64,000 nucleotides of DNA from an uncultured Anaerolineales bacterium (GTDB lineage Bacteria; Planctomycetota; Phycisphaerae; FEN-1346), in assembly GCA_964526295.1 (NCBI GenBank), contig CAZGKW010000007.1, positions 5,136 to 69,135 on the forward strand, given 5' to 3'. The translations under genes were made by a program, and so were the position numbers. Of the stretch, positions 39,355 to 61,334 are shown piece by piece (positions within the stretch are counted from its first letter, which is position 1; every line of letters starts with the position of its first letter). The notes below the pieces were generated by a model, which ran no database searches, was not told the origin of the DNA, and saw nothing but the letters and a program-made list of their open reading frames with translations.

Positions 39355-40119
39355 TCAACGGCCCACGTGGCCTTCTTCGATGTCGAGGTCCTCGCGCCGC
39401 TCGATGCGTTCGACGGCCCCGTCGCGCATCCACAGGACCCGGTCGGAGTTGGCCAGCATCTTGTGGTCGTGGGTGGCGGCGATGATCGTCACGCCCTCCT
39501 CGACCGAGAGGCGTTTCAGCAGATCGATGATGTCGGCCCCGGTCTTCAGGTCGAGGTTCCCGGTCGGCTCGTCGGCCAGGATGATGACCGGGTCGTTGAC
39601 AAGGGCCCGGGCGATGGCAACCCGCTGCTGCTGGCCGCCGGAGAGCTCGTCCGGGCGGTGGTCGAGGCGGTCGCCCAGGCCGACCCGCTCGAGGACCCGG
39701 GCGGCGGCCACGGTGGCCGTCCGCGTGTCGGTCCCGGAGAGGACCCGCGGCAGCGCGACGTTCCGCGACGCCGTCAGCGACGGCAGCAGGTTGTAGGACT
39801 GGAAGACGTAGCCGATGTACTGGCACCGGACGTAGGCGAGCTGGCGGCTCGAGAGCTTCGTCAGGTCCATCGGGCCGATGGTCACCGAGCCTGAGCTGGG
39901 CACGTCGAGGGCCCCGATCATGTTGAACAGGGTCGTCTTGCCCGAGCCCGAGGGGCCCATGACCGAGAGGTACTCGCCGCAGAGGATGTCGGCGGAGACG
40001 TCCTTGAGGGCGTGGACGGTCTCGCCGCGGAGGCGATAGACCTTCGAGACGTTGCGGGCGCGGATGAGGACCTCGCCCAGGGCGATGCCGTCGCTTGCGG
40101 TTTCGAGCCCGGCCGTCAT
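39355..40119 (-). CDS. ABC transporter ATP-binding protein (MacB/FtsE/LolD-type)
   Basis: Walker A GPSGSGKTT, signature LSGGQQQRVAIARAL, Walker B ILADEPTGNLD, H-loop ATHD. Confidence 0.9.
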   Translation of the reverse strand: MTAGLETASDGIALGEVLIRARNVSKVYRLRGETVHALKDVSADILCGEYLSVMGPSGSGKTTLFNMIGALDVPSSGSVTIGPMDLTKLSSRQLAYVRCQYIGYVFQSYNLLPSLTASRNVALPRVLSGTDTRTATVAAARVLERVGLGDRLDHRPDELSGGQQQRVAIARALVNDPVIILADEPTGNLDLKTGADIIDLLKRLSVEEGVTIIAATHDHKMLANSDRVLWMRDGAVERIERREDLDIEEGHVGR

Positions 40120-40260
40120 TTGCTTCTTCGGTCTCCTCTGAGCGTGTTCAGGGGAGTCTCGTCAGTTTTTGGCGCGGCGGGTCACCGTGCCCGCCGCGTT
40201 CCGGTGGGCCAGGCGCGGCCGGCACGGAGACCGACCGCGCAGGACCATCCTGGACCCGCC

Positions 40261-42303
40261 TTAGAACGGCAGTTGGAACACGCTTTTCATCAGGAACGTC
40301 ACGCCGATGCTGAACGTTCCGACCAGCCCGACGCCGCACATGAACCCCGCCGCCACGACGGGGATATACTGCCGCCAATTGAGGCCCAGCCGCCGCTGGA
40401 AGTAATACCGGCCGAGCAGGGCCCCGATGAAGTTGGGGATGACCGCGTGGGGCATGGTCTGCCCCAGACCGCGGACGACGCCGTAGACGAGGAACGTCGG
40501 GGCCCCCAGCCGCGTCAGCAGCGTGAACATGAAGGTCCCCAGGACCAGCCCCGCCGCCAGGTAGTCCAGGTTGAACGCCCGCTCGAACAGGGAGTACCCG
40601 CCGAGGGTGGCGCTGTGCATGATGGCCTCGTTCTCGGCGTAGAGGTCCCACATTTTCTGGGCGAACGGGTACTGCGGCCCCGGCACCGGCGCCAGGCCCC
40701 AGATGAAGTTCGCGAACAGCAGGCTCGACAGGATGATGATCGGCGCGAGGATGAGGTCCGACTTCCAGATGCTCGTCACCTTCGTTCCCGTCAGCTCGGC
40801 CTGCCGGAACGACACGGTCTTGACGCCGTAGTTGTGGAGGGGGATGGGCAGGAACCAGACGGCCACCCCCTGGTAGCCCGACAGGATGAACGAGGCCTCC
40901 CGGACGAACGGAATGTTGACCACCTGGCCCGCGATGCCCTCCAGGCGGGCCGTGGCATAGCTGATGAACGGCGTGTAGAGGAAGCCGTAGAAGACCAGGA
41001 CCAAGAGCACGCCCGTGTGGACCCGGCCGTCGGTCAGATAGAGGAGGTAACACGATACGAGGATGTATAGGGCCGTCGAGATGATGTAGGTGATGATGAT
41101 GAAGCGGGTGCGGATGTCGCCCCGGCCGGGCGGCGGGGCGAAGCCCTCCTCCTGGAGCGTGTCCCGCTCCCGGTGCCACCGCCGCAGCTTCACGATGGCC
41201 TGGCAGATGGCCCCGATGCCCACCAGCGCGATCGCCAGCATCAGCCCGATCTGGAAGCTGAAGTAGAAGTCCACCTGGTTCTTGAACAGTGTCGAGATGG
41301 TGTTGTCGGCCCCGGCCTGCCACGCCTCCAGGACGTCCAGCCGATACAGGGCGGGGTTCGCGACCACCGTTACGAGCAGCCCGATGAAGCTGCCCACCAT
41401 CGCCCAGAACGGCAGGACCATGCCGGTGATGAGGTGTCCCAGGTCGAACGAGAGGCCCGTGGCGACGGCGGGCAGGTACTTGCCCGTCTGGGGGGTCCAG
41501 TCGACGAACGGGATGGGCAGCAGGACGATCGGCTTGTCGAGCAGGGCCCCCGTCACGGTCGGAATGCCGATATAGACGGCCCCGAAGACGATGCCGATAA
41601 TCGAGCCGATGGAGAAGACGCGGTATCGCCATCGGGTGGCGGGGCCGGAGGAGGTCTCGTCGGGCGCGCGGTTGGGGTTCTCCTCCTCCTGCTCCTCGCT
41701 GAGCGCCAGCACGCCCTGGGCCTGCAAGGGCGCCAGCGGGAACGGGAGCTTCTCCACGTCGCTTGCCAGGCGGAACAGGCCGTAGCCGAGGATCGTGTTG
41801 TTGAGGCGGCTCATGATCGTCGTGAAGACGATCAGGCCGATCGCCGGGAGCCACTCCCACGTGAAAATCGACCGGTGCGCCAGCACCTCCTGGCTCGGGA
41901 CGAACCAGAACGGGATGTGCTCGGCGATGCCGTGGGCCTCGGCCGCCGTCGACTGGGCGTAGAACTGCTTCCACAGGAGCGAGCCCTTGGGGATGACGGC
42001 GGCCGTGCCGGCCATCGCCGCCGCCGCCAGGTAGAACAGCGTGAAGATCTCGGCCCGTTTGAGGGTCTTGTTCGCCCGCCGGGCCACCTCGATGAACAGG
42101 ATCACCGTGACCCACTGGGCGGCCGGGCCGATCGCCTTGCCCGCCACCAGCGTCATGTAGAGCGCCCCGGGCACCATCACCAGGGCGACGAAGCAGACGC
42201 CGATGAACGACGACCATGTGAAGCCCTCCTCAAACGTGGAGGGGACCTCCAGGAGGCTTCGAAACTCCTGGACTTCCCGGTCGTCGGCGAGTTTTCTGGC
42301 CAT
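40261..42303 (-). CDS. 680-aa polytopic inner-membrane protein of unknown function
   Basis: About 14 predicted hydrophobic helices throughout, G/C-rich third positions, and no recognisable motif. Confidence 0.7.
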   Translation of the reverse strand: MARKLADDREVQEFRSLLEVPSTFEEGFTWSSFIGVCFVALVMVPGALYMTLVAGKAIGPAAQWVTVILFIEVARRANKTLKRAEIFTLFYLAAAAMAGTAAVIPKGSLLWKQFYAQSTAAEAHGIAEHIPFWFVPSQEVLAHRSIFTWEWLPAIGLIVFTTIMSRLNNTILGYGLFRLASDVEKLPFPLAPLQAQGVLALSEEQEEENPNRAPDETSSGPATRWRYRVFSIGSIIGIVFGAVYIGIPTVTGALLDKPIVLLPIPFVDWTPQTGKYLPAVATGLSFDLGHLITGMVLPFWAMVGSFIGLLVTVVANPALYRLDVLEAWQAGADNTISTLFKNQVDFYFSFQIGLMLAIALVGIGAICQAIVKLRRWHRERDTLQEEGFAPPPGRGDIRTRFIIITYIISTALYILVSCYLLYLTDGRVHTGVLLVLVFYGFLYTPFISYATARLEGIAGQVVNIPFVREASFILSGYQGVAVWFLPIPLHNYGVKTVSFRQAELTGTKVTSIWKSDLILAPIIILSSLLFANFIWGLAPVPGPQYPFAQKMWDLYAENEAIMHSATLGGYSLFERAFNLDYLAAGLVLGTFMFTLLTRLGAPTFLVYGVVRGLGQTMPHAVIPNFIGALLGRYYFQRRLGLNWRQYIPVVAAGFMCGVGLVGTFSIGVTFLMKSVFQLPF

Positions 42304-42364
42304 CGGCCGATCCTCAGGCCCGTTCGGGCTTCCCTCGTTCCGCCATCTCCGCGGCGGGGCCCGG

Positions 42365-45300
42365 CTACTCCGCCGTCGCCTCCGCTTCCTCCTCGCCCAA
42401 GGCCGTCAGCGTCGCCATCCGGTACGACTCGACCGTCTCGGGCGTCAGCGTCCGCCACAGGAGGAACTGCCGCCTCAGGTCGTGCAGAAAGACCCGGTTG
42501 GCCCGTTTCCAGTCGGCGGCGGCGCCGCTGAGGCGGTCGGCCTCGACGGTCACCTCCTCGACGCCGGGGACCTCCGACGGGGCGCTCGAGAGCTCGAAGT
42601 GCTGCGTCACCCCCAGGTCGAACGGCGCCAGGGCCAGCTCGGCCTCCAGCGCCAGGCCGTCCGTCTCGCCGACCCGCCGGATGCGGACGTCGCGCGAGGC
42701 GAACACCCCGAGCCCGGCATCGTCGTGCTGGCGAAAATGCTCCGCCAGGTAGCCCACCACCCCGGTAATGTCGTAGGCCGAGACGGTGAAGGGGAACGTC
42801 ATCCGGAGGGTGTCGCCCTCGGGTGGGGGCATCTTCCAGGACCGCTTCAGGCCCGGGTTCGCACTCCGGGAGGCCCGGTAGGCGGGGAAGATCGCCGACG
42901 CCAGGACCGTCGCCATCACGATGCCGATGGCGAACAGGGCGTTGGTGGAGGAGAAGTTGATGTTCGTGGGCTGGATGAGGCCCCGCTCGGCCAGCATCAG
43001 CGTCCCCTGGGCCACGCCCTGGGCGAGGACTTGGCCGGCCATCCCGCCGACGACCGCGTAGACGGCCGCCTCGGCGAAAAACAGGAACCCCACGTCCAGC
43101 GGCGCCAGGCCCAGGGCGCTGAACGAGTAGATCTCCCGCTCCCGGTCGGCGATGCTCCCGAGCATCGTCCCGAAGATGATCAGCCCGCCCAGCAGGACCG
43201 GCACCGCCAGGGCCGCCGCCCCCGTCACCTCCGTCAGCTCCGAGAAGACCAGCCGTACGACGCCTTCCGTGCCGTTGGCCCAGACGGGCAGGGCGGTCTG
43301 CTCGGCCGCCGCCGCGCCGGCCTCCACCCGGTCGGTCTCCTCGGGTGGGTAGACCGTGACGACGTGCAGCCGTCCACCGAGCCGGCGGACGAGGTCGGCC
43401 GAGGCGATGGCCACCTGGTTCGGGCTCAACCGGACGAACTCGCGGGCCAGGACGTCCTCGGACGCCCCCTCTTTCTCCTCCGCCTTGACGGCCGAGGAGG
43501 GGTCGCGGAAGTCGACCGGCAGGGCGCTGCGGCCGTCCAGGTGGTTGAGCCGCTGGAGAAGGCGGTCGTCCAGGACGCCGGCGAACCGGCACCGCTCGCC
43601 CGCCACGAGGATCGGGTCCCCGGCATGGAGGTCCATCTGGTCGCGGAGGATCCGGGGCAGATAGACCCCCCCGCCGGCCAAGGCCGCGCACTTCTCCTCC
43701 AAGGTCTCGCCCTGGAGCAGCTCGGCCATCTGGGGCCACCGCCGCACCTCCTCCGGCGTCACGCCGATGACGCCGTCGACCCACAGGCTGGCCCCCGACG
43801 CCGGTCGGACCACGCCGAAAGCCGGGTCGCCTTCCAGCTTCGGGGCCAGCCACCACTGGCCGGTGACGAGCCCGCCGCCCGGGGCCCGGCGGGAGGCCGG
43901 GGCCGGGTCCTGGCCGGGCAGGTCCGCACCGGGGCGGGGGGCCGCCCCGCCCAGCGCCGCCTCGGGCGAGGCCGGGCCCTCCGAGCCGCCCAGCATCACC
44001 AGGGCGTCGCTGGAGAGGGCCTTGTAGTCGAGCTTCCGCAGGAAGAGGCCGGCGGCGTCGTCGCCGGGCGGCCGCTCGTAGACCTCCCGCACGCCCACCA
44101 GGTTCGCGAGCGAAGCGAAGCACATCACCGTGAAGGTCAGCATGACCACCGTGACGGCCGTCAGGACGGTCCGCAGCGGCCGACGCCGCATCGTCGAGAT
44201 GCCCATGTTGACGGCTGCGATCAGCGTCGAGAGCCGCGACTGCTGCACCCGGTGACGGGCGCTCGACTGGCCCTGCATTGCCCTCAGCTCGGTCTGGAAC
44301 TTGCGGGTCACGATGAAAATGACCACCGACGAGAGGAGGATGATGAGGAACGCCAGGAGAATGACGATCGGCGTGGCGGCGATCTTGAACCCCGGATGCG
44401 TCAGGAACAAGAGGACGAACGTCACCAGGAACAGGGCGGCGAACCCCACCAGCCGCGTGTAGATGCTCGTTGCGCAGACGATGAGACGTTCCATGACGAA
44501 GGCGAACGGGATGGCCAGCAGTAGCAGCAGGACAATCGCCCGGATCAGGTCGTTCATCACGTTCTTGAGCGGCAGGTAGACGTCGCGCGACAGGGCGGCG
44601 CTGCGGCCGAAGCGGGTCGTCCGCAGGGCCGTCGAATCCGCCCGGTGGGCCTCGGTCCTGATGCGCTGGGCCCGCCCGTGGAGCCGTTCCAGGTCGGCCG
44701 CGACGATGCCCCGCGTCCGGAGGATGCTCAGGCGGCCCTCGTTCAGCCGCCACAGGTCCTCGGCGCTCGTGGGGTCGGTCGGCGGCGGCGTCTGGAACGC
44801 CTCGAACGGGAACCCGTCGCCGGTTGCGCGTCGCGTCGGCTCGCCCAGGAACACCGGGCCCTTCGGATGGAAGACCTTGACCGTGCCGGGGAGACCCTCG
44901 AACATGTAGAAGAACGCGAAGTCGTCGCCGTGGCCGAGCAGGCGCCGCTGGATCCTGAACGGGGTGTCCGACCCGCCCGCCAGGACGTGGATTTCCTCGT
45001 CCGTGCCCCACTCGGCCATCAGGGGCCGGCCCACCACCTGGCCCTGGCATCGGAACAGGTTCAGGCGGACCCATTCGGCGCTCTTGCGGGTGTCCTCCTC
45101 GCGGTTCGTGATGGCGGTCGGCCGTCCCCGCGAGTCGAACATCGCCCCCACCACCTGGTACGTCGAGAAGAAGATCTTCTGGATGCCGACCAGTTCAAAG
45201 CGGCCGTCGGCGTTGGCGGCGGCGATGAACGTCGGGTCGAAGAAGGTGAACGAGTCGTCAAGGACGAGCGGGTTGACCCACTTGCGAGGTTCGCCGTTCT

Positions 45301-47512
45301 TCTTGGGCCAGACGGCGATCAGGGCGCCCGCGGCGGGCCGGTTCTCCTCCAGGCTTCCGGTCACCTGGAGACCAGCGAAGTTGCCCGTCGCGGTCTTCTT
45401 GGCATCGTCCCACTGGGAGAACCGCTTCAGCGAGAGGTCCTCGAACGTTCGCCGAAGCGACAGGGCCCGGAGGTCGGCCGCCCGCGCCAGGAGACGGGTC
45501 CCGGCCGCCGCGTGCCGGCGAAGCTCGCGCCACGCCAGCCGGTCCACTGTGTCGGCGGGGTGCCCGTCGCGGGGCCGGCGGTCGTGGCCCGTCATCAGCG
45601 ACACGTTGTAGATGCCGTGCACCCCGGCGACGCGCCCGTCGGAGACGAACCGGCCGGGGGCGTAGCGTCGGCTCTCGGTCGGCTCGCTGAGCGTTTTCGT
45701 GTCGAGGCTCGCGAGCCCGGTCGCGGCCGCATCGGTGGTCTCGGGGGCGCCGAACGACTCGGCCGCCTCGCGAAAGGCCGCCAGGACCTGGGCGTAGTGG
45801 CCGGCCGAGTCGGCGTTCGGGTTGGTGGCGATGTCGTGCAGGGCATCCCGCACGACCACGCCCCAGGTCGGCCCCTCGCCCGAGAGGTTGTAGCCGGTGT
45901 GCAGGACGATCGTCCGGTCCGCCAGCCGGGTCCGCAGCCGGCGGCCCTGCTCGTCGATTCGGACCCGCACGGCCAGCTCGTCGCGTCGGCGGGCGAAACC
46001 CGCGGCCGTCGCCTCGACCAGCTCCGCGTACAGCGCCGGATGGTCCCGGTGTACGAGGACGGTGCCCCCCAGGGCGGCCTCCGGGTCCGCCGCGCCGAAC
46101 AGCCAGCGGAAGGACCGGACCAGGTGGCTCTGTCGCCGCGTCCCGTGCAGGGCCCGGCGGACGGCGTCCCATCGACTCACCATCGCCCTGAGGTCATCGA
46201 CCTCTTGCATCTCAGGCGTCTCGCCCGCGGCCGCTTCCTCCTCGGCCCGGCGGCGAAGCTGCATGAGGCGGACGTTCAAGTCGGCCCGGAGATGGTCGGC
46301 CTGTCGGCTGAGCGCATCCTTGGCCGCGTCGACGTCCCCCGTCTCGACGTTCCACTGGCCCGGCGCCTGGCGGAGCAGCGCCAGGATGCCCTCGACGAAG
46401 GCCTTCTCCTGGCGATGCGCCTCGGCGAGCTTCTCGGCCTGTCCGCTCTCGAGGGTCAGGGCCGTGTAGAACGCCCGGGCCCCCGCGAAGGACCGGGCTT
46501 GGCCGTCCAGGAACGCCACCAGCACGTCCCGCCGGGGCCGGTTCTCCTTCAGCCAGGCCGTTGCTTCCAGCAGGGCCGCCACGTTGGCCGCTCCCCGGGC
46601 CCCCGGCGACAGGCGAGGCACTACGCCGAACGAATCGTAGTTGGCCGACAGGACGACCAGCTCCGGTCCGGGGCTGTCGAAAATGGGGTTGGTGCCCGGC
46701 AGGAAGGCGAACACGTTTCGCCCGGACGTCCGTTTCCACTCGACGTGGCTGACGACGGTCACCTCGGGGTGGTCCCGCCGAAGGTCGACGCCGGCCCGGC
46801 GGGCCTCCTCGGCCGGGGCGTAGAGGCGGACCAGGTTGGCCGGCACGTAGGCGTGCTTGCGGGCCAGGGGGGTGGCTCGATGATCGGCACCGGCGGCGGG
46901 GCCGGGCTGCGCCGCCGGACCGCCCAGGAAGATCACCGCCTTGGCCCCCATCCGGAACGCCCGCTCCCACTGGTCGTCGCAGTCGTACTCCAGTCCGACG
47001 ATGGCCCCTGCGCAGGGGCGGTCTCCGTACTCGGCCAGCGTGCCGCGGCCGGCGTAGAGGTACGGCCCCCTCAGGCCCTCGTCCGGCGTGACGGGCGGCA
47101 TGAGGATGTTCGGGCGGACGGGGAGCAGCTCGACCTTCGCCGCGCCGCCCGGGGCATCCGTGCCCAGGAGCAACTCGCACCGCGCGGGCTGGGTCTGCCA
47201 CAGCGGCACGTCGAGGATGAAGACGTCCTGGGCGGCCGTCAGCGGGGCCTCGGCCGGGGTCGTCTCGCCCGCCGGGGGGGGCACCGCTAGGCCCATAGCT
47301 GCGAGACGCCCCAGGACATAGTCGGCGGCCCGCCGTCCTTCGGACGTGCCCGCCAGACGGTGCGGGTCCCGCGTCAGGGCCTCGAGGTCGGCCCGGAAGG
47401 CCTCCTCCCCGGGCTCGCGGGCGGGGGCCCCGGCCGCGCAGTCGGGGCCCGCGGCGGCCGCGGCCAGCGCCGCCCACCCCGCCAGCGACAACGCGATGAC
47501 CCGAGCACCCAT
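42365..47512 (-). CDS. 1716-aa secreted/membrane fusion protein: PA-domain-containing M28-like (apparently inactive) peptidase domain + large extracytoplasmic region + 4-TM bundle + MacB-type FtsX permease
   Basis: The real start is ATG at 47512 (MGARVIALSLAGWAALAAAAAGPDCAAG, a signal peptide), and it overlaps the stop of the upstream ABC ATPase as ATGA. The upstream 159 codons of track ORF 42365..47989 are antisense of that ATPase. An M28-like block reads VVLSANYDSFG...GARGAANVAALLE...VAFLDGQARSFAGARAFY with the Zn ligands replaced. The C-terminus ...LLGGLIIFGTMLGSIADREREIYSF...IFPAYRASR is an FtsX domain. Confidence 0.75.
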   Translation of the reverse strand: MGARVIALSLAGWAALAAAAAGPDCAAGAPAREPGEEAFRADLEALTRDPHRLAGTSEGRRAADYVLGRLAAMGLAVPPPAGETTPAEAPLTAAQDVFILDVPLWQTQPARCELLLGTDAPGGAAKVELLPVRPNILMPPVTPDEGLRGPYLYAGRGTLAEYGDRPCAGAIVGLEYDCDDQWERAFRMGAKAVIFLGGPAAQPGPAAGADHRATPLARKHAYVPANLVRLYAPAEEARRAGVDLRRDHPEVTVVSHVEWKRTSGRNVFAFLPGTNPIFDSPGPELVVLSANYDSFGVVPRLSPGARGAANVAALLEATAWLKENRPRRDVLVAFLDGQARSFAGARAFYTALTLESGQAEKLAEAHRQEKAFVEGILALLRQAPGQWNVETGDVDAAKDALSRQADHLRADLNVRLMQLRRRAEEEAAAGETPEMQEVDDLRAMVSRWDAVRRALHGTRRQSHLVRSFRWLFGAADPEAALGGTVLVHRDHPALYAELVEATAAGFARRRDELAVRVRIDEQGRRLRTRLADRTIVLHTGYNLSGEGPTWGVVVRDALHDIATNPNADSAGHYAQVLAAFREAAESFGAPETTDAAATGLASLDTKTLSEPTESRRYAPGRFVSDGRVAGVHGIYNVSLMTGHDRRPRDGHPADTVDRLAWRELRRHAAAGTRLLARAADLRALSLRRTFEDLSLKRFSQWDDAKKTATGNFAGLQVTGSLEENRPAAGALIAVWPKKNGEPRKWVNPLVLDDSFTFFDPTFIAAANADGRFELVGIQKIFFSTYQVVGAMFDSRGRPTAITNREEDTRKSAEWVRLNLFRCQGQVVGRPLMAEWGTDEEIHVLAGGSDTPFRIQRRLLGHGDDFAFFYMFEGLPGTVKVFHPKGPVFLGEPTRRATGDGFPFEAFQTPPPTDPTSAEDLWRLNEGRLSILRTRGIVAADLERLHGRAQRIRTEAHRADSTALRTTRFGRSAALSRDVYLPLKNVMNDLIRAIVLLLLLAIPFAFVMERLIVCATSIYTRLVGFAALFLVTFVLLFLTHPGFKIAATPIVILLAFLIILLSSVVIFIVTRKFQTELRAMQGQSSARHRVQQSRLSTLIAAVNMGISTMRRRPLRTVLTAVTVVMLTFTVMCFASLANLVGVREVYERPPGDDAAGLFLRKLDYKALSSDALVMLGGSEGPASPEAALGGAAPRPGADLPGQDPAPASRRAPGGGLVTGQWWLAPKLEGDPAFGVVRPASGASLWVDGVIGVTPEEVRRWPQMAELLQGETLEEKCAALAGGGVYLPRILRDQMDLHAGDPILVAGERCRFAGVLDDRLLQRLNHLDGRSALPVDFRDPSSAVKAEEKEGASEDVLAREFVRLSPNQVAIASADLVRRLGGRLHVVTVYPPEETDRVEAGAAAAEQTALPVWANGTEGVVRLVFSELTEVTGAAALAVPVLLGGLIIFGTMLGSIADREREIYSFSALGLAPLDVGFLFFAEAAVYAVVGGMAGQVLAQGVAQGTLMLAERGLIQPTNINFSSTNALFAIGIVMATVLASAIFPAYRASRSANPGLKRSWKMPPPEGDTLRMTFPFTVSAYDITGVVGYLAEHFRQHDDAGLGVFASRDVRIRRVGETDGLALEAELALAPFDLGVTQHFELSSAPSEVPGVEEVTVEADRLSGAAADWKRANRVFLHDLRRQFLLWRTLTPETVESYRMATLTALGEEEAEATAE

Positions 47513-48375
47513 CACGCCTGCCCCCCGATCCGGCCCACCCGGACCTCGACGTCCTCGCGTCGGTCGACCCGCTCGATCTGGCCGTCGCGGATCCACATCA
47601 TCCGGTCGCAGACGTCGAGCAGGCGATGGTCGTGCGTCGCACAGACGACCGTCACGCCCTGGCTCTCGTTGAGGCGCTGGAGGACCTGGAGGATCTCGGC
47701 CCCGGTTGCCAGGTCCAGGTTGGCGGTCGGCTCGTCCGCCAGGAGGACCTTGGGCTGGTTGCACATGGCCCGGGCGATGGCGACCCGCTGCTGCTGGCCT
47801 CCCGACATCTCCTTCGGCCGATGGGTCCACCGGTCCGCCAGACCCACCAGGTCCAGCAGCTCCATCCCCCGCCGGCGGGCGGCCTCGGGCGCCACCCCGG
47901 CGAAGGCCATTGGCACCGTCACGTTCTCCAGGGCCGTCATGTACCGGATCAGGTTGTAGCCCTGAAAGATGTAGCCGATCTTGCGGCACCGGAGGAAGGC
48001 CAGCTCCTCGGCGCTGAGTTGGGCGACGTCGGTTTCGTCAATGAGGACCCGCCCCTCGGTGGGCGAGTCGAGCGCCCCGATCATGTTGAAGAACGTCGTC
48101 TTGCCCGAGCCCGAGGGGCCGAGGATGGCGATAAACTCGCCCCGGTGGATGACCGCGTTGACCCCGTTCAGGGCGTAGGTGGTCTTCTCGCCCATCTGGT
48201 AGCACTTGACGAGCCGGAGGGTCCGGATGATGACCGGCTCGTCGGTGGATTGCGGTGTCTCGGTCATCTCAGCTTGCGTGAATCCTTGCGCGTCCACAGG
48301 CCCCGGCGAGCTTCCGCTCGCCGCTCGAAAACTTTCGACTCGGGTTCCCGCCTTCGCCAAGGCGACGGCGGGCAA
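47512..48375 (-). CDS. ABC transporter ATP-binding protein (MacB/FtsE/LolD-type)
   Basis: Walker A GPSGSGKTT, signature MSGGQQQRVAIARAM, Walker B LLADEPTANLD, H-loop ATHD. Confidence 0.9.
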   Translation of the reverse strand: MPAVALAKAGTRVESFRAASGSSPGPVDAQGFTQAEMTETPQSTDEPVIIRTLRLVKCYQMGEKTTYALNGVNAVIHRGEFIAILGPSGSGKTTFFNMIGALDSPTEGRVLIDETDVAQLSAEELAFLRCRKIGYIFQGYNLIRYMTALENVTVPMAFAGVAPEAARRRGMELLDLVGLADRWTHRPKEMSGGQQQRVAIARAMCNQPKVLLADEPTANLDLATGAEILQVLQRLNESQGVTVVCATHDHRLLDVCDRMMWIRDGQIERVDRREDVEVRVGRIGGQA

Positions 48376-48420
48376 GCCCGCTTGCCGCTCGAAGACTTCC
48401 GCGGCAGGCTCGAACCGTTT

Positions 48421-49887
48421 TCATTCGATTCGCATCGCTTCCATCGGCGCGAGGCGGGCCGCCGCCCACGCCGGGCCCACCGCTGCCAGCACCGCCAGCA
48501 CCAGGCCCGAGGCGAGGCACGCCGCCGCCCCCACGAACGTCTCCCGCACCGGCAGCACCATCAGGCTGCCGAAGGCGACCGCGCCTCGCAGCATCGCCAG
48601 GGCGTAGCCCAGGATGATCCCCGCGATGGCCCCCACCAGGCCTTGCGTCCCCGACTCGAATAGAAACTGGAGCCGGATGAACCCGTCCATCGCCCCCAGG
48701 CACTTCATCGTGGCGATCTCGGCGAACCGCTCCGCCACCGACATGAACATGGCGTTCGCCACGCCCACCGTGCACACCAGGAACGACAGGCCGATCAGCC
48801 ACTTGACCCAACCGGGGACGGTCAGCAGACCGCCGCCCTCGACCGGGGGCGGCCCTTCGCCCACGGCCGCCGAGAGCCGCGACTGCTCCCGCAGCGACTC
48901 GGCCAGCGCCAGCAGCCGTTGCGGCTCCACACGCGGCCCGGCCGCGTACCGGTTGATCAGCGTCCCCAGAAACGCCGCCTTCTTCCGCGAGTCCAGCCAC
49001 GCGAGCACCCGGCCGTGGGTCACCTCGGTGGCCTTGAGGTCCAGCTCCTTGGCCAGGGCCCGGGCCACGTCGGGCAGCTTGACGGCTTCGGTCAGGCGGA
49101 TCTGCTCCTCGGCCTGCCGCGCCAGGGCCGCCAGCTTCGGCAGGGCCTCCTGGGGCAACTCGAACCCCGCGGCCGCCAGCGTCTCGGCGAAGTCCGGCGG
49201 CGGGTAGGCGAACAGCTCCCGCGGCGACCGGCCCGGATACGCCGCTTCGATACGCCGGATGGCCGCCTCCTGGCCCCGGCGGATCCGCTCGGCCATCGCC
49301 AGGGCCTCGGGGCGGTCTCCCGTCAGCACCGCCCGGAACCGCTCGACGCTACCGAGCGGCGGCTCCAGCCGGAGCTCCTTCAGGTGGGCGAGGAACGCCT
49401 CGAACCGCTGCGCTTCGCTCAGGCGGCCCGCCGCCTCGTGCGGCTCAAGGTCCGCCACCAGGACCGTCCGCGTCGCCACCGGCAGGCCCTCCAGGTAACC
49501 GTAGAGCCGGGCCAGCGACCGGGCGGCCTCGCGGGCCGAGGCGAACTCCGCCTCGGTCGCGCCGCTCCAGGTCCGGTACGCACCCACCCGCGGCCCGTCG
49601 GCCCCCGCCAGGCGCGAGAGGATCGCCGCCGCGTCGTCCGGCACCGTCAGGCGGGTCGTCCACTCGCCCAGGAGCCGGGCATCGCGGAGCTGCCGGTACG
49701 CCGCCAGACGCGTCCGGTTCTCGATCACGCTGTACCCGAGGACGTGGGCGAGGAACGCCACCGCCAGGGCCAGGATCGAGACCGTCACCATCGACCGGAA
49801 CATCCGGTACGACATCCCGGTCAGCGTCAGACCGAAGCACCGGGCCGGCCCGATGCGAACCTGGTTCTTGACCACCAGCGGCTTCAC
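48421..49887 (-). CDS. FtsX-like ABC permease (MacB-type, with ~350-aa extracytoplasmic helical domain)
   Basis: GTG at 49887 (VKPLVVKNQVRIGPARCFGLTLTGMSYRMFRSMVTVSILALAVAF is TM1) overlaps the PqqD-like gene stop. The C-terminal FtsX TM2-4 is ...LSFLVCTVGVANAMFMSVAERFAEIATMKCLGA...AARLAPMEAMR. The upstream low-complexity part of track ORF 48421..50163 is rejected. Confidence 0.75.
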   Translation of the reverse strand: MKPLVVKNQVRIGPARCFGLTLTGMSYRMFRSMVTVSILALAVAFLAHVLGYSVIENRTRLAAYRQLRDARLLGEWTTRLTVPDDAAAILSRLAGADGPRVGAYRTWSGATEAEFASAREAARSLARLYGYLEGLPVATRTVLVADLEPHEAAGRLSEAQRFEAFLAHLKELRLEPPLGSVERFRAVLTGDRPEALAMAERIRRGQEAAIRRIEAAYPGRSPRELFAYPPPDFAETLAAAGFELPQEALPKLAALARQAEEQIRLTEAVKLPDVARALAKELDLKATEVTHGRVLAWLDSRKKAAFLGTLINRYAAGPRVEPQRLLALAESLREQSRLSAAVGEGPPPVEGGGLLTVPGWVKWLIGLSFLVCTVGVANAMFMSVAERFAEIATMKCLGAMDGFIRLQFLFESGTQGLVGAIAGIILGYALAMLRGAVAFGSLMVLPVRETFVGAAACLASGLVLAVLAAVGPAWAAARLAPMEAMRIE

Positions 49888-50324
49888 GTCTCGGCCCCCT
49901 CGGCCGCCGGACCGGCCCCGTCGGTCGGCGTGCCGATCATCACGATCAGCCCCCGCCGGGTCAGGTCGCGGAGGAACTGCATGACGCTGATCCGGGCCTC
50001 CTGGAACGTCAGGTGGTGGGCCCGTGAAAAGCGCTCGATGATCTCTTCGGCGGTCCGCCGCCCGTCGCAGGCCTCCCACACCTCCCGGCCCAGCCGGTCG
50101 AGGCCCACGGCCCGCTCGCGGCTGAACGGCATCACCCACGACAGCGGCGGCCGCATGTACCACCGGCGGACGAGCGGCACGCGAAGGACGATCCCGCCTC
50201 CTCCCGGTCCCCGGCCCGACGGTTGCGGCTCGGCGCGGACCGACTCGTTCGGCACGGGGACGGCGTCGAGCAGGTCGGTCGGCCCCAGCGTCGTCTCGGT
50301 CTCCGGTTGCGTCTTCTTCTTCAT
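49884..50324 (-). CDS. PqqD-family / RiPP-recognition-element-like small protein
   Basis: ATG at 50324 overlaps the upstream stop as ATGA. The C-terminal ~85 aa read ...LDRLGREVWEACDGRRTAEEIIERFSRAHHLTFQEARISVMQFLRDLTRRGLI, matching the PqqD fold signature. It is hidden inside track ORF 49884..51245. Confidence 0.65.
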   Translation of the reverse strand: MKKKTQPETETTLGPTDLLDAVPVPNESVRAEPQPSGRGPGGGGIVLRVPLVRRWYMRPPLSWVMPFSRERAVGLDRLGREVWEACDGRRTAEEIIERFSRAHHLTFQEARISVMQFLRDLTRRGLIVMIGTPTDGAGPAAEGAET

Positions 50325-51205
50325 GTCAGCTCGCGCTCCGCCCCGTCCGGCGCCCCGTCGCAGCAGCGGACGGCGAAGGCCTCCGGCCGCACCAGGTCCT
50401 TCCGCGGGCCCCGCGTCGTCACCAGGAACACTGCGTGGGCCGACGGGCACAGCCACGCCCGGTCGAGCCGCTCCGGCGTCCGCCGCACGAACCGGGCGAC
50501 GGCGTTCGGGGCCTCGTTGCTGCGGCCGTCGCGGGCCTCGTGGGTCCCGTACGTCGTCTCGGACACCTGGCACCGGGCGGGGCCCGTCTGGTTCCTCAGG
50601 AACGCCGCCAGGTCCCCGCCGAACCAGGCGTCGACCGCCCCCAGCCGCCGCACGACCGCCTCCCGCCGCCGGTCCTTGCGGAACGTCATCGACGCATCGG
50701 CCGGCCGGGCCGACACCTCGGCCAGCGGCCACTCGGGCGGGACGCGGATGTCGAGGCCGAAGGCCCGCCACCGACGCGGCGGATCGGCCTCGTCGTCCAC
50801 CTCGAACCCCTCCAGGAGCCGCCGCTCCAGGCCCGTATCGACCGCCTCGGGCCACGAGACCACCATCTCGACCCACCGCTTCAAGGCCGCCAGGTACCGC
50901 CCGGCCCGGGTGATGGTGCCGGCCTCGCCCCGGCGGCGGAAGCCCCGCCAGCCGGCCGTCCGCTCCAGGCGAGTCAGCTTGCAGTCGGGGTCCTCGGCCA
51001 GCTCGTCGGCCCGGTAGTCCGAGAGCGTCCGCTTGACGTCCGGCTCGGCCTCGGCCCGGATCCACGAGACCTGGAGCCGTTGCCGACGTCGGTCCGCCAG
51101 GGCCAGGCTGCCCCGCTCGGCGCCCAGGGCGTGGCGGACGATCTCCCACGCCTCCGGCACCGCCAGGTGCATGCCCAGCCACACGATGTCGCGGGTCGTC
51201 TGCAT
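50321..51205 (-). CDS. hypothetical 294-aa protein (no TM, family not recognised)
   Basis: Track ORF 50321..51205(-). G/C-rich third positions. Its stop is coupled to the PqqD-like ATG. Confidence 0.6.
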   Translation of the reverse strand: MQTTRDIVWLGMHLAVPEAWEIVRHALGAERGSLALADRRRQRLQVSWIRAEAEPDVKRTLSDYRADELAEDPDCKLTRLERTAGWRGFRRRGEAGTITRAGRYLAALKRWVEMVVSWPEAVDTGLERRLLEGFEVDDEADPPRRWRAFGLDIRVPPEWPLAEVSARPADASMTFRKDRRREAVVRRLGAVDAWFGGDLAAFLRNQTGPARCQVSETTYGTHEARDGRSNEAPNAVARFVRRTPERLDRAWLCPSAHAVFLVTTRGPRKDLVRPEAFAVRCCDGAPDGAERELT

Positions 51206-51250
51206 CCGCTTGGCTCGCCAAGGCAGGCCCGCCTGCCCCCCTCACCCCAC

Positions 51251-51273
51251 CCCTCTCCCACCAGGGGAGAGGG
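51251..51273. repeat. GC-rich palindromic intergenic element (copy 2 of CCCTCTCC...GGAGAGGG + AGGTSATGG)
   Basis: CCCTCTCCCACCAGGGGAGAGGG followed by AGGTCATGG. It lies in the 87-nt gap between the 946-aa and 294-aa genes. Confidence 0.5.
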
Positions 51274-51291
51274 AGGTCATGGCATGCCGGC

Positions 51292-54132
51292 TCAGCCCGG
51301 CAACAGGCTGTAGGTCACCGGGGCCTTCCCCGTCAGGGCGAAATAGACGGCCCCGACGATGGCCCATCCGATGGCCGCCAGCAGCTCGCCGGCGATCACG
51401 CCGACCATAAGCGGCTTGATCAACTGGTACCCCTTGGCGCCGCCGAGCTTGACGACGGCGGTCTTGATGGCCCAGCCGAGGAAGAACGAGGCGGCGAGCT
51501 CGAACCCGGGCTTCGTGCCCCAGACGAGAAACATTACCGGATGGATAAACCACCAACTGATACGCAGCCGCGCGATCGAGACCCCCACCACCAGCGCCAG
51601 GCCGAGGCCCACCCAGCCCATGACTTCCGGGTCGAACCGGGCCTCCGCCAGGGCCCCCAGCCCCGACGTGGCCGTCGCCCGGGCCAGGTCGCCTCGGGCC
51701 CGGAGCTCCACGATGTGCTTCTCGATGCTGTTGAAGACCTCCCGCGGCAGCGACACCGTCGCCCACTTGTCCCGGTGGTTGACCCCGAGGTTGTACTGGA
51801 ACCACAACGTTACCAGCAGGGCCGCGACGAAGGCGGCCACCAGCATCACAAGCAGCCAGGGGGCCAGGCGGCGCGGCCGGGCGCCGGCGCCGCTGTGGCC
51901 CATCCGCAGGCCGTTCGCCAGATACGGCATGATGGCTTCCCGCGGGTCGCCCACCAGGATCACGCTGGCCAGGGCCAGCAGGACGTACGCCTGGGGACTG
52001 ATGGCCGAATGCCCCAGCACCGCCACCAGGACGGTCGCCGGCAGCCAGTAAGCCTGGAGGAAGAACGCCCCGGTCTCGACGTTGATCCGCGTGATGATCA
52101 ACAGCGTCAGCATCACCAGCGCGATTGCCAGGATGCTGAGCGGCCAGTCGAGCCCCGCCCGACACAGAAGCAGCACCGCCAGGACCAGGCACACGATCAG
52201 GCCGCGCGCCGCCCACGTGGCATAGGGGGGCGTGTCGCGCCGCCGACTGAGGCCGAAGGCGCTGCCCAGCACGTTCAGGTAATACCGCCGTCCGATGTAA
52301 AGCAGGACGCCCGCCATCCCAAGGTAGGCCCCGAAGACCATCAGGTTCACGTTCTTGGCGTCGAAGTACGGGCTGACCATCGCCGTGCCGCGGGCCACCA
52401 GGATCGTCCCGAACGCCACGTACGCGACGCCCGAGATGCCCAGGCTGAACGAGACCCCCTTGTTCAGGAAGAAGGCGAACGCCACGACGCTGAGGTAGAT
52501 CGTCGGGTTCCAAACGCCCTGCCAGTCGTAGACCTTCTTGGCCGTGGGGAAGAGCTTCTTCAGGGGCGTAAAGTCGACCTGCGTCGGGACCTTGATGAAG
52601 AACGTTTCGTTGTCCCACTTGTTCAGGCCGTTCACGAGGTGCAGCAGGACCAGCGCCAAGAGGCCGTACCAGAAGAGCCGCGACAGAAGGACCGCCGGGG
52701 TCCGGCTTTCCGCGGCGGGGCGCGTCACCTCCTCGACGAACCGGGCGATGGGGTAGGCCAGCAGCTCCCGCTGCGACCACTGGGGGTGGACGATCAGCGT
52801 CAGGCAAAGCGCCGCCGTGCCCACCAGCAGCGCCAGGCCACCCCACAGCTTCAGCGTCGGCCACCATGTCCTCCAGGGCAGGTCCGCCAGGCCGAGGCCG
52901 AATCGCTCCCCGGTGCCGCCCCGCCACCCCTGCTGGAGCGTCTCGACGGCGAAAGGGTCGATCGTCCCGCCGGCCAGCAGGGGGCCCTCGTCCGGGTCGT
53001 ACGGCGCGAGCAGCTCCGGCCAGGCCGCCTCCAACGCGATGCGGTTGATCTCGGCCTCCAGGCGGCCCACCTGGTTCGCCGTGCCGATCCGGTGGTCGAT
53101 CGAGTCGATGCGTTCCTGGAGGAGGCGGATGGGGTTGTCGTAGGCGGCAAGCCGCCCCGTGACGTCGCGAATGCGGGCCTCCAGCGGGGCCATGCGGGCA
53201 TCCAGGGCCTCGATCTCCCGGCGGAGGGCCTCGATCCGGCTCGTCAGGTCGGAGGGGGCCTCGGCCGCCGGGGCCGGTTCGCCGCCGGGGCCCTCGGCCT
53301 TGCGGAGGCGGGCCTGGAGGTCGGCAAGCTGCCGGGCCAAGGCCTCGCGCTGGAGGCGCAGGGGCTCGCGCTCGGCGATGAGGGCCTCCCGCTCGGGCTC
53401 CAGGCGGACCCGGAGGCTCGTCCGCCGGGCTTCCAACTCCCGGAGCCGATCGCCGAGATCCTCGCGCTGCACGGCCAGCTCGGCCCGCTCCTCGAGGAGC
53501 GCCTCGGCGACCTCCGGCAGTCGGTCCCCCAGGGCGGTATAGAACGCCCGGTCCTCGATGACGTTCTCGTTGATGGCCCGCAGGAGGGCGGATTCCTCGG
53601 CGTCCGAGAGGCGGGCGTCGTCGGGCCGCTCGCCCGCGATCCGTCGGGCCCCCTCGGGCAGAAGGGTCCAGACCAGCCGGTCGGTTTCGTCCTCCGCCGC
53701 CTCGGCGGCGGCCAGCCGCTCGACCAGCGCTTCCCAGTCGCGGACGTGGCCCCGGGCGAGGTGAGGAGAGCCGCCCGGCACGTACGACATGATCTGGGCG
53801 TCCTGCCACCCGGTCCGGTTCCGGATGAGCTGGCTGGGCATGGCGAGGTTCGTGGTGAACGTCCGGAAGAACCCCGAGCCGGGCCATCCGCAGGCCGCCA
53901 GGCCGATCGCCGTGATCACGACCAGCTCGGACGACTTCAGCCGCCACCTCGTTCCGACGGCGCCGAGCGTCGGGTTCACCGCCAGCAGCAGGACCACCAG
54001 GACGCCGAAGACCGCGATGGGAAGGAAGTTCCCGATCAGTTGGGTCTGGTTGATGACGGCGTCGTTGAAGTAGGTGACGGCCGAGACGAGGAGGCCGAGC
54101 AGGAGGCCCAGGATGACCGCGCGGAGCGTCAT
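51292..54132 (-). CDS. 946-aa polytopic membrane protein with ~350-aa central coiled-coil
   Basis: ATG at 54132 after GGGAGG gives MTLRAVILGLLLGLLVSAV.... It has ~5 N-terminal TMs, then a long heptad-rich region (...LRELEARRTSLRVRLEPEREALIAEREPLRLQREALARQLADLQARLRK...), then ~12 further TMs. The track ORF is extended to 54333. Confidence 0.7.
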   Translation of the reverse strand: MTLRAVILGLLLGLLVSAVTYFNDAVINQTQLIGNFLPIAVFGVLVVLLLAVNPTLGAVGTRWRLKSSELVVITAIGLAACGWPGSGFFRTFTTNLAMPSQLIRNRTGWQDAQIMSYVPGGSPHLARGHVRDWEALVERLAAAEAAEDETDRLVWTLLPEGARRIAGERPDDARLSDAEESALLRAINENVIEDRAFYTALGDRLPEVAEALLEERAELAVQREDLGDRLRELEARRTSLRVRLEPEREALIAEREPLRLQREALARQLADLQARLRKAEGPGGEPAPAAEAPSDLTSRIEALRREIEALDARMAPLEARIRDVTGRLAAYDNPIRLLQERIDSIDHRIGTANQVGRLEAEINRIALEAAWPELLAPYDPDEGPLLAGGTIDPFAVETLQQGWRGGTGERFGLGLADLPWRTWWPTLKLWGGLALLVGTAALCLTLIVHPQWSQRELLAYPIARFVEEVTRPAAESRTPAVLLSRLFWYGLLALVLLHLVNGLNKWDNETFFIKVPTQVDFTPLKKLFPTAKKVYDWQGVWNPTIYLSVVAFAFFLNKGVSFSLGISGVAYVAFGTILVARGTAMVSPYFDAKNVNLMVFGAYLGMAGVLLYIGRRYYLNVLGSAFGLSRRRDTPPYATWAARGLIVCLVLAVLLLCRAGLDWPLSILAIALVMLTLLIITRINVETGAFFLQAYWLPATVLVAVLGHSAISPQAYVLLALASVILVGDPREAIMPYLANGLRMGHSGAGARPRRLAPWLLVMLVAAFVAALLVTLWFQYNLGVNHRDKWATVSLPREVFNSIEKHIVELRARGDLARATATSGLGALAEARFDPEVMGWVGLGLALVVGVSIARLRISWWFIHPVMFLVWGTKPGFELAASFFLGWAIKTAVVKLGGAKGYQLIKPLMVGVIAGELLAAIGWAIVGAVYFALTGKAPVTYSLLPG

Positions 54133-54329
54133 AGGCGGCTTCTCGATCCTCCCCGGCCCGCCCGGTGCGAAGACACGTGCGAGCGGGGCCGGTTCGCCCC
54201 CGTGATGCCGGCGGACCACGGCCGGGCCCGCCGGGGCGTCGGATTCTAATGGCGCGGCGGGGCGTTGCCAAGACCAAAGACGGACAAGACACAAGGGACA
54301 AGGGTGGACGCCCGTCGGCCCGGCTCGAT

Positions 54330-56257: not shown

Positions 56258-56286
56258 GCAGACGGTCGAGACTTAGAGTTGCACGC

Positions 56287-61319: not shown

Positions 61320-61334
61320 ACCGGGTTAGGCGCA

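Follow-up and report, generated by a model that had tools for sequence, protein, structure and literature searches.

Type VII (MacB/FtsX-fold) ATP-binding cassette (ABC) transporters couple ATP turnover to movement of their periplasmic domains, usually without passing a substrate through the membrane (PMC12646458, PMC5985334). What each one does is set by its partners, which are either periplasmic (EnvC, LolA, MacA, and TesA) or embedded in the membrane (BceS) (PMC12646458), and the systems assembled in this way (MacAB-TolC, LolCDE, FtsEX-EnvC, YbbAP-TesA, and BceAB-BceS) each run a distinct and important envelope process. Here, we analyzed an operon of eight genes, g1 to g8, that occupies positions 39355 to 54132 of a 64,000-nucleotide stretch of DNA (hereafter the window; GenBank assembly GCA_964526295.1, contig CAZGKW010000007.1) from an uncultured bacterium with a GTDB lineage in the Phycisphaerae (Planctomycetota). 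The predicted features of its permeases and ATPases place the encoded system in the Type VII superfamily, and its partner set is seen in none of the systems named above: a dead M28 receptor fused to a permease, an OPT-family protein, a DUF6785/DUF6784 protein, and an RRE-type binder together with a new family, that of g2. We rate it as a new member of the Type VII ABC systems whose defining feature is this unprecedented set of partners, which includes one unnamed family and two domains of unknown function (DUFs). An initial annotation, made from the sequence letters without database searches, could not map the genes to any described system, and we likewise found the ensemble in no curated family (Pfam, NCBIfam, or PADLOC) and in no paper in the literature searched. 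The genes and the features discussed below are as follows.

51292-54132, minus strand: g1, 946-aa polytopic membrane protein with DUF6785 and DUF6784 (Pfam)
52948-53760, minus strand: coiled-coil insertion of g1, about aa 125 to 395 (SMC-like/coiled-coil matches at aa 192 to 351)
50321-51205, minus strand: g2, 294-aa cytoplasmic protein with a predicted tandem Mog1/PsbP/DcrB-like fold (structure model and fold search)
49884-50324, minus strand: g3, 146-aa PqqD-family (RRE-type) peptide-binding domain protein (Pfam PqqD)
48421-49887, minus strand: g4, 488-aa FtsX/MacB-type permease with a GTG start (Pfam FtsX and PDB profile)
47512-48267, minus strand: g5, 251-aa ABC ATPase of the LolD/MacB/FtsE/DevA subfamily (ABC_tran and NCBIfam)
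42365-47512 (ATG start) or 42365-47515 (GTG start), minus strand: g6, the giant protein, 1715 or 1716 aa, respectively
45473-47407, minus strand: g6 aa 36 to 680, dead PA-M28 ectodomain including a helical insertion (PDB profile, AlphaFold2, and Foldseek)
45923-46447, minus strand: g6 aa 356 to 530, four long helices within the M28-like fold (DSSP of the AlphaFold2 model)
44870-45433, minus strand: g6 aa 694 to 881, all-beta region that follows the M28-like domain and precedes the stalk (AlphaFold2)
44312-44806, minus strand: g6 aa 903 to 1067, helical stalk and three extra transmembrane helices ahead of the FtsX module (AlphaFold2 and hydropathy)
42878-44170, minus strand: g6 aa 1115 to 1545, MacB/FtsX-type module of four transmembrane helices (Pfam FtsX, PDB profile, and hydropathy)
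42368-42877, minus strand: g6 aa 1546 to 1715, strongly conserved cytoplasmic C-terminal domain (alignment columns)
40261-42303, minus strand: g7, 680-aa polytopic protein, predicted divergent member of the OPT family (Pfam OPT)
42214-42303, minus strand: g7 aa 1 to 30, cytoplasmic N-terminal tail (alignment)
39355-40119, minus strand: g8, 254-aa second ABC ATPase (ABC_tran)
54243-54271, minus strand: sigma-70-like promoter match, TTGGCA-17-TAGAAT (consensus match only)

The eight genes constitute a self-contained unit that is vertically and widely conserved. A scan that took one genome per species found relatives of the giant g6 in at least 571 genomes, belonging to six or more phyla, and the best 80 of the loci in these genomes were compared by tblastn with the eight window proteins. 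Carriers among these 80 were Planctomycetota (mostly Phycisphaerae), Verrucomicrobiota (including one isolate, LW23), Lentisphaerota/Victivallales, Kiritimatiellota, Myxococcota (Polyangiaceae), Fibrobacterota/Chitinivibrionales, and Omnitrophota. The isolate, “Verrucomicrobia bacterium LW23” (locus L017), is a cultured carrier, and its g1 is DB346_00745. A protein collection held 83 homologues of g6; most of those listed spanned 97 to 100% of the query, at identities down to 26%, and they included one from Sumerlaeia. These homologues were annotated at most as “FtsX-like permease family protein.” The order g4-g5-g6-g7-g8 was kept in nearly every locus of sufficient length, and g7 followed the giant in every locus reaching that far. 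The synteny search across phyla that had been suggested in the initial annotation thus found the gene set staying together in at least six of them.

Presence was counted in the 35 loci whose flanks extended 7 kb or more on each side, where g5 and g7 were each found in 34, g4 in 33, g8 in 32, g2 in 31, g3 in 30, and g1 in 24. The genes g2 and g3 form an adjacent pair that lies either upstream of g4 or after g8; the position of g1 varies between loci, and in some it is duplicated. The exact gene order of the window was the commonest (12 loci), and the same order without g1 was seen in 9 loci. Overlapping junctions recurred throughout the family, although the spacing figures rest on approximate start calls: g2 and g3 overlapped in 39 of 45 loci, g3 and g4 in 29 of 38, and g6 and g7 in 31 of 68. 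An all-against-all comparison of 4751 flanking open reading frames (ORFs) of 25 to 400 aa from ∼80 loci detected no ninth gene or small ORF, as no family occurred in more than 4 loci, and no precursor peptide, enzyme, adaptor, or outer-membrane gene was conserved beside the locus in ∼80 loci.

Two loci (L088 and L089) represent a divergent subtype, in which the giant is 26 to 28% identical to g6 and the order is small FtsX permease, ABC ATPase, giant, DUF6785/6784 protein, and g7. This subtype has a single ATPase gene, with g8 and the g2-g3 pair absent. In one further case, a 3.9-Mb contig carries two giants ∼300 kb apart that split the set between them: the first locus (L003) has g1, the PqqD protein, the FtsX permease, the ABC ATPase, the giant, and g7, without g2, and the second (L087) has g2 and a paralogous giant but none of the other system genes in its vicinity.

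By hydropathy, g6 starts with a signal-like helix (aa 3 to 23), followed by an ectodomain of ∼960 aa and three transmembrane (TM) helices (aa 989 to 1067). After these come a basic cytoplasmic linker, FtsX TM1 (aa 1115 to 1133), a periplasmic domain of ∼295 aa, and TM2 to TM4 (aa 1429 to 1543). The protein ends in a 170-aa cytoplasmic tail that is among its best-conserved parts, with many invariant columns, and this region (aa 1546 to 1715) had no PDB or Pfam match. The length of 1716 aa reported in the initial annotation holds for the GTG start, and the ATG start gives 1715 aa. Pfam Peptidase_M28 was matched at aa 266 to 350 (26.8 bits versus a cutoff of 21.3); across the g6 family, M28 was found in 13 of 16 members, PA in 4, and Nicastrin in 3. 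When the family profile was compared with the PDB, it matched 2ek8 (E value, 1e-14), YwaD (8.5e-11), nicastrin (1e-3), and TfR (0.05), with nicalin also matched more weakly.

An AlphaFold2 model of aa 1 to 1000, built with 60 homologues (predicted local distance difference test [pLDDT], 90.4; predicted template modeling score [pTM], 0.90), has an M28 core with a PA insert, and the latter half of the M28 fold spans aa 534 to 680. Four long helices (aa 356 to 380, 393 to 428, 435 to 472, and 477 to 530, as assigned by DSSP) are inserted between the halves, and the stalk helices (aa 903 to 999) run into the membrane. Foldseek searches with the model recovered 2ek8 (3e-14), GCPII/PSMA (1e-12), and TfR (9e-12), as well as BSAP and NAALADase L (within 1e-11 to 3e-14), and some of the alignments to GCPII and TfR spanned ∼720 to 770 columns. 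For aa 590 to 985, profile comparison with the PDB gave only a weak match, to a catechol dioxygenase beta-sandwich (E value, 0.08).

The zinc-ligand and catalytic positions of g6 are replaced in a HMMER alignment to 2ek8. We counted the corresponding columns in 60 homologues, judging the last two ligands by eye from motif resemblance. The His column held Asn in 17 sequences, Pro in 12, His in 11, Ala in 7, and Asp in 6. The column of the bridging Asp held Arg in 55 of 60, with Gly in the adjacent column in 42 of 60. At the Glu-Glu pair, the first position held Gln in 36 (otherwise Glu, in 8, or His), and the second was Ala in 48 and never Glu. Over these 60 homologues, the family thus lacks the co-catalytic zinc ligands and catalytic Glu of active M28 metallopeptidases, and the replacement stretch R306-G-A-A-N310 is near-invariant. 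Based on this combination of lost zinc ligands and conserved replacements, we conclude that the g6 ectodomain is a PA-M28 pseudo-peptidase of the GCPII/transferrin-receptor/nicastrin type, catalytically dead across the family, and most simply a receptor that binds a ligand or a partner. The suggestion in the initial annotation that a dead M28-like domain is fused to a permease was therefore borne out by the fold, the lost ligands, and the FtsX module described below.

The PA and M28 folds of g6 are shared with TfR, GCPII (PSMA), nicastrin, and nicalin, and in TfR and nicastrin, which are eukaryotic receptors of this kind, the zinc site has likewise been lost while the fold was retained. Unlike these proteins, g6 is bacterial and fused to an ABC permease, it carries an added beta-rich region and stalk, and its helical element lies inside the M28 fold (aa 356 to 530) instead of at the C terminus.

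Both permeases and both ATPases were recognized by curated models, in agreement with the MacB/FtsX-type ABC modules that the initial annotation had read. Pfam FtsX was matched above its cutoff by g6 (E value, 2e-7; 31.4 bits; 16 of 16 family members) and by g4 (5.5e-15; 55.9 bits; 25 of 25 members). Their hydropathy layouts differ: g4 has TM1, an extracytoplasmic domain of ∼300 aa, and TM2 to TM4 (1+3), compared with 3+1+3 in g6. In profile searches of the PDB, TM2 to TM4 of g4 matched Spr0695, MacB, LolF, and YtrF (1e-20 to 1e-14), with FtsX reaching only 2e-4. The C-terminal module of g6 matched Spr0695, YtrF, MacB, LolC, and LolF, with weak matches to the periplasmic domains of LolC and LolE, and MacB_PCD was detected in 3 of 16 g6 family members (best, 1.2e-7). 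The two ATPases are 51% identical to each other and match ABC_tran (g5, 3.6e-34; g8, 1.4e-31), with intact Walker A, signature, Walker B, and H-switch motifs; the Walker B of g5 reads LLADEP in the sequence. Their best NCBIfam models were LolD, MacB, DevA, and FtsE (1e-60 to 1e-66), all below the equivalog cutoffs.

In the divergent subtype, a single ATPase serves two permeases, which is the pattern of LolCDE and supports one heteromeric g4-g6 transporter. From this we infer that g4 and g6 form one heteromer and that g5 and g8 arose by later duplication. As in LolCDE, there are two different 4-TM FtsX-type permeases and separate LolD-like ATPases, with no fused nucleotide-binding domain (NBD) and with the work done on the periplasmic side (PMC5985334). 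Unlike in LolCDE, one permease carries, besides a dead-peptidase ectodomain of ∼960 aa, a cytoplasmic tail and three additional TM helices; two distinct ATPases occur in the main subtype; there is no LolA-like partner; and OPT-like, DUF6785, and PqqD partners have been added. The resemblance to MacAB-TolC lies in TM2 to TM4 of the permease, which are nearest to MacB, Spr0695, and YtrF, and in the MacB_PCD detectable in some giants. It ends at the NBD, which is not fused here, and at the lack of a conserved membrane-fusion adaptor or TolC-type gene nearby. A MacAB-TolC-type pump was rejected as an identity for the system, with no HlyD/MacA adaptor family among the called neighbors in seven loci (L003 to L006 and L087 to L089); the sole trace of an outer-membrane factor was a faint OEP match 5.7 kb away in L003.

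The 14-TM protein that the initial annotation had left without a family, g7, proved to match Pfam OPT (PF03169) with 40.9 bits against a cutoff of 25.8 (E value, 1.4e-10; profile positions 134 to 407 of 623). Its orthologues are likewise annotated as OPT in precomputed data, and no NCBIfam model matched g7. This profile match points to g7 being a divergent OPT-family protein: compared with the family as a whole (TC 2.A.67), it passes the threshold, yet it is very divergent and sits in an ABC operon. To our knowledge, OPT proteins have not been found in such operons. Median cross-phylum identity was 56% for g7 versus 39% for the giant, making g7 the most conserved membrane subunit, and its counterparts in the divergent subtype are 46 to 49% identical (hhalign E value, 2e-184). 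The N-terminal tail of g7 is near-invariant across phyla at D8, E10, R15, P21, F24, G27, and F28 and is a candidate docking peptide for an ATPase, the g6 tail, or the RRE domain.

The other polytopic partner, g1, matches DUF6785 (256 bits) and DUF6784 (61 bits), both of which were present in 23 of 23 aligned orthologues; neither DUF was mentioned in the literature searched. The initial annotation described g1 as a membrane protein with a long coiled coil and without obvious precedent in such systems. The coiled coil is supported, but a family exists, and the coil is a variable insert: orthologues range from ∼670 to 1026 aa, and since many of ∼670 to 690 aa, the shortest, lack it, it is a lineage-specific insertion and no core feature. 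Where present, it probably faces the periplasm, going by the positive-inside rule applied to the hydropathy TM segments. Neither the g7 nor the g1 profile had a match in the PDB, indicating that neither has a solved relative. The two may be distantly related to each other. BLASTP gave an E value of 0.04, hhalign a probability of 3 to 15% (P = 0.002 versus 0.03 for reversed-sequence controls), and a greedy alignment was co-linear over nearly the full length, with an E-L-P-[FY]-P motif in common. These results are suggestive only, and we make no claim from them. Pfam OPT was not matched by any of 23 g1 members even at E ≤ 10, so g1 is kept out of the OPT family.

The remaining two proteins, g2 and g3, have no TM segment and no signal peptide, and g2 is accordingly predicted to be cytoplasmic. 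The PqqD/RRE-like assignment of g3 in the initial annotation was confirmed by Pfam PqqD (E value, 4e-11); there is also a weak resemblance to lasso, GeoRSP, and SCM peptide chaperones, with all NCBIfam PqqD-type chaperone models below cutoff (e.g., 26.7 versus 100). No Pfam family covers g2, which to that extent remains the 294-aa unknown of the initial annotation, and its profile matched nothing significant in the PDB or Pfam. The fold can now be named, however, since a structure model (pLDDT, 86.8) consists of two tandem Mog1/PsbP/DcrB-like units, and fold searches matched Mog1, PsbP, TplEi, SciW, DcrB, and LpqN. This is a nonenzymatic binding fold, matching protein- or peptide-binding chaperone or immunity modules, and in it g2 resembles DUF1795/Eag proteins (SciW) and other Mog1/PsbP-fold binding modules. 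We know of no description of a tandem Mog1/PsbP-fold partner for an RRE.

The g2 family comprises 984 cluster representatives at E ≤ 1e-3, and all 6 tested members of 420 to 445 aa carried a C-terminal PqqD domain. These g2::PqqD fusions, along with an overlap of the two genes that is nearly universal, argue for a physical g2-g3 complex. The PqqD-like protein is thus no orphan, as it had been called initially: it is nearly always paired with g2 and sometimes fused to it.

Building on the composition, folds, lost catalysis, and co-inheritance observed, we tentatively favor a reading, which we hold as plausible but short of probable, in which the operon encodes one heteromeric Type VII ABC mechanotransducer that acts with OPT-like partners on a peptide-like ligand. 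In this mechanism, g4 and g6 would pair as a LolC/LolE-like heterodimer, with g5 and g8 supplying the power, and ATP binding and hydrolysis would move the periplasmic domains, with no substrate carried through the FtsX helices. The dead peptidase domain of g6 would act in the periplasm as the receptor for a ligand that resembles a peptide, whether a peptide itself, a protein terminus, or a peptide conjugate, and this ligand would cross the inner membrane by way of the OPT-like g7, plus g1 where present. On the cytoplasmic side, g2-g3 might recognize this ligand too, or instead a conserved tail within the machine, or might regulate the machine. We propose a peptide-like ligand because the M28/GCPII, OPT, and PqqD families all have members that bind or carry peptides or peptide-like molecules, and the invariant OPT-like partner together with the cytoplasmic peptide-binding pair suggests that it is handled at or across the inner membrane. 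Two reports describe OPT proteins as carriers that use proton coupling to move peptides, glutathione, metal chelates, and folates (PMC12831333, PMC12687453). Delivery from the cytoplasm to the envelope is the favored direction, with uptake as the alternative, because RRE domains, DUF1795-like chaperones, and Type VII ABC transporters act in outward processes. RRE domains and DUF1795-like chaperones act before export.

Several observations weigh against this mechanism. Among the flanking ORFs of ∼80 loci, no substrate gene is linked to the system. The divergent subtype and a few other loci lack the g2-g3 pair, and g1 is missing from about a third of the 35 well-flanked loci, so any role given to g1, g2, or g3 must be accessory. 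The N-terminal tail of g7 is kept where g2-g3 is absent, which weakens the idea that the tail is the ligand of the RRE domain. The direction is ambiguous, as characterized OPT proteins are importers (symporters). The dead M28 pocket of g6 could hold something other than a peptide, and the main subtype may instead contain two separate homodimeric transporters, (g4)2(g5)2 and (g6)2(g8)2. In addition, the extracytoplasmic domain of g4 has no recognizable Porter/MacB_PCD signal (MacB_PCD in 0 of 25 members and no PDB match for aa 57 to 355), where a Porter subdomain is said to be present in all Type VII periplasmic domains (PMC5985334).

A bolder version, which we consider quite unlikely, would make the system a previously unrecognized route for peptides or small proteins between the cytoplasm and the envelope in Planctomycetes-Verrucomicrobia-Chlamydiae (PVC)-group, myxobacterial, and fibrobacterial diderms. 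Substrates encoded elsewhere would be selected by g2-g3, the OPT-fold subunit (with the DUF6785 protein) would be the path, and the Type VII motor with its dead receptor would capture the cargo and push it on the periplasmic side. If true, this would be a new class of transport machine, with a secondary-transporter fold mechanically coupled to an ABC mechanotransducer. The system could show whether an ABC mechanotransducer can drive such a fold. Its carriers belong to environmentally dominant, poorly studied phyla, and solving it would give functions to two DUFs and the unnamed g2 family and would probably bring to light a process of the envelope that is particular to these lineages.

Of the alternatives to the mechanotransducer with OPT-like partners, the one that survives best is an allosteric regulator of the FtsEX-EnvC type, although we consider it unlikely. 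The motor would flex the helical insert and dead M28 domain of g6 and thereby switch an unlinked periplasmic hydrolase (e.g., a cell wall amidase or peptidase); nothing would be transported, and g7 and g1 would serve as sensors or scaffolds. This is in essence the ATP-driven regulator suggested in the initial annotation. Points in its favor are the unusual division machinery of several host lineages, the four long helices inserted in g6, and the loss of catalytic residues there while neighboring residues are conserved. A dead enzyme domain and long periplasmic helices on an FtsX-fold mechanotransmitter also mirror FtsEX-EnvC and its PcsB, CwlO, and RipC variants, EnvC itself being an FtsX partner made up of a coiled coil and a dead LytM domain (PMC7668044, PMC12646458). 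The dead domain of g6 is, however, a PA-containing M28 fold and not M23/LytM, it is fused and not recruited, and the system has further partners, both polytopic and cytoplasmic. Among the conserved neighbors there is no gene for a hydrolase, an amidase, or a LytM protein. Both permeases fall far under the FtsX equivalog cutoff, and g4 is closer to MacB, LolF, and YtrF. Regulation would also leave the OPT-like g7, the most conserved subunit, and the PqqD/Mog1-like pair without a role. Orthology with FtsEX was itself rejected (FtsX_Gneg, 29.6 versus 255; FtsE, 204 to 207 versus 265), and neither EnvC, PcsB, nor an amidase was encoded in a conserved gene near the locus.

An extractor resembling Lol or YbbAP is distinctly improbable. 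In such a machine, the FtsX heteromer would pull a lipid-anchored or hydrophobic molecule (a lipoprotein, lipopeptide, or lipid-linked precursor) from the outer leaflet of the inner membrane and pass it to the dead-peptidase domain or onward, with g7 and g1 acting as flippases that feed it the substrate. The hetero-permease architecture is a hallmark of LolC/LolE (PMC5985334), and YbbAP-TesA offers a precedent for extraction followed by presentation to a periplasmic partner, as well as for a partner that defines function, the latter shared with MacAB-TolC (PMC12646458). The best ATPase model was LolD, LolC, LolE, and LolF were among the permease matches, and the fold of g2 matches the lipid- or lipoprotein-related DcrB and LpqN. 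Against these points, g2 differs from DcrB and LpqN in being cytoplasmic; the conserved neighborhood contains no LolA-like gene; the periplasmic partner here is a pseudo-enzyme, unlike the active hydrolase TesA; and we know of no precedent for OPT or DUF6785 proteins acting as flippases. The Lol models also scored far under their cutoffs, and orthology with LolCDE was rejected on the same NCBIfam equivalog values (lolCE, 35.7 versus 362; LolE, 31 versus 439; LolD, 221 to 223 versus 308).

A biosynthesis and export cluster for a ribosomally synthesized and posttranslationally modified peptide (RiPP), with the PqqD protein as leader-peptide recognition element and the ABC module as exporter, is very improbable. 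The PqqD family membership of g3, its weak likeness to lasso, GeoRSP, and SCM chaperones, and the adjacent ABC transporter speak for it, but no precursor-like small ORF or modifying enzyme (radical SAM protein, cyclase, or protease) is conserved in 80 loci, g2 is nonenzymatic, the PqqD equivalogs score below cutoff, and the divergent subtype does without g2-g3. The glycyl-radical activase at 35108 to 36025 belongs to an unrelated, oppositely oriented gene pair. Classification as a RiPP cluster with an RRE was accordingly rejected: the domain is that of PqqD/RRE RiPP chaperones, without their precursor peptide or tailoring enzymes.

The g6 family also matches a PADLOC profile, PDLC01991 (“CARF_m8--CARF_LolE_TM”), with E values of 1e-43 to 1e-55 over the stalk and the 3+4 TM FtsX module. 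Of the 810 profile positions, the aligned span was 253 to 598 for g6 (4e-43) and 11 to 598 for homologues; positions 598 to 810 were unmatched by g6 aa 1597 to 1715, and the N-terminal ectodomain was unmatched as well. The giants are in addition co-linear with PDLC01990 (“CARF_Beta-galactosidase_LolE_TM”), a profile of 1791 positions. These matches point to a larger clade of giant FtsX permeases with seven TM helices, in which the ecto- and endodomains differ. That the giant is itself an anti-phage or signaling membrane effector controlled by its cytoplasmic C-terminal domain is scarcely credible despite its match to these two profiles, one of them similarly giant, since the match to PDLC01991 is confined to the stalk and 7-TM FtsX module with the profile end unmatched, no other PADLOC protein was matched save a coiled-coil artifact, no defense genes are conserved nearby, and the fixed operon and moderate to high cross-phylum identity would be more typical of a housekeeping envelope system.

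At the level of the DNA, the eight minus-strand ORFs are all co-directional and lie at the positions first reported for them. The window has a G+C content of ∼70%, so long spurious ORFs are common in it. The G+C content at third codon positions (GC3) was 0.88 to 0.96 in the eight operon frames versus 0.48 to 0.68 in overlapping alternative frames, and all eight products have homologues in other phyla; the frames are genuine coding sequence and no high-GC artifact. Read directly, the g2/g3 junction is an ATGA overlap (50321 to 50324) and the g3/g4 junction a GTGA overlap (49884 to 49887), the latter being the GTG start across a stop codon that the initial annotation had noted. Of the two ATGA overlaps it had also listed, the one at 50321 to 50324 stands; at 47512, between g5 and g6, the junction reads GCG-TGA-TGG (GTGATG), giving a GTGA overlap with the GTG start at 47515 or a 1-nt overlap with the ATG start at 47512. 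The other gaps within the operon measure 86 nt, 153 nt (g4-g5), 61 nt, and 141 nt (g7-g8). Coordinates, GC3, and short or overlapping junctions thus agree with an operon-like, translationally coupled set of eight genes, as originally described.

In a scan for consensus sequences only, the promoter-like TTGGCA-17-TAGAAT was located ∼110 nt upstream of the g1 start, with 10 of 12 consensus positions matched; equally good sigma-70-like sites numbered 3 in 18 kb versus 0.8 expected. The same kind of scan found no terminator-like hairpin in the internal operon gaps. No tRNA or Rfam element was detected within the window.

The flanking genes are unrelated to the operon, with an NAD-epimerase, separated from the operon by 80 nt, and aldo-keto reductases (AKRs) downstream and a low-GC stretch and a BamB-like propeller upstream. 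The low-GC stretch (positions 55400 to 58300; G+C fraction, 0.55 versus ∼0.70 for the window) sits a short distance upstream of the operon, is possibly foreign DNA, and contains ORFs without a Pfam match. One of these (57091 to 57774, minus strand) has a PEP-CTERM-like C-terminal motif, read by eye as VPEP, a hydrophobic segment, and RKRLKS; another (56287 to 57090, minus strand) has Cys-x-x-Cys pairs and a hydrophobic C-terminal region. An ORF near this stretch (60285 to 61325, minus strand) matches a Mutator-family transposase (profile positions 210 to 377 of 379) and also DDE_5, and it looks like a transposase that is composite or degraded. An ORF of ∼136 codons (54769 to 55179, minus strand), with a coding-like GC3 (0.83) and no Pfam match, falls between the promoter region of g1 and the low-GC stretch. 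On the other side of the operon, positions 32811 to 36025 (plus strand) encode a glycyl-radical enzyme (PFL-like and Gly_radical) followed by a radical-SAM/4Fe-4S activase, unrelated to the operon. The AKR genes at 36096 to 38115 (minus strand) lie near the cluster, and an AKR-like ORF family was found near it in four loci, including L008; this proximity is probably a coincidence.

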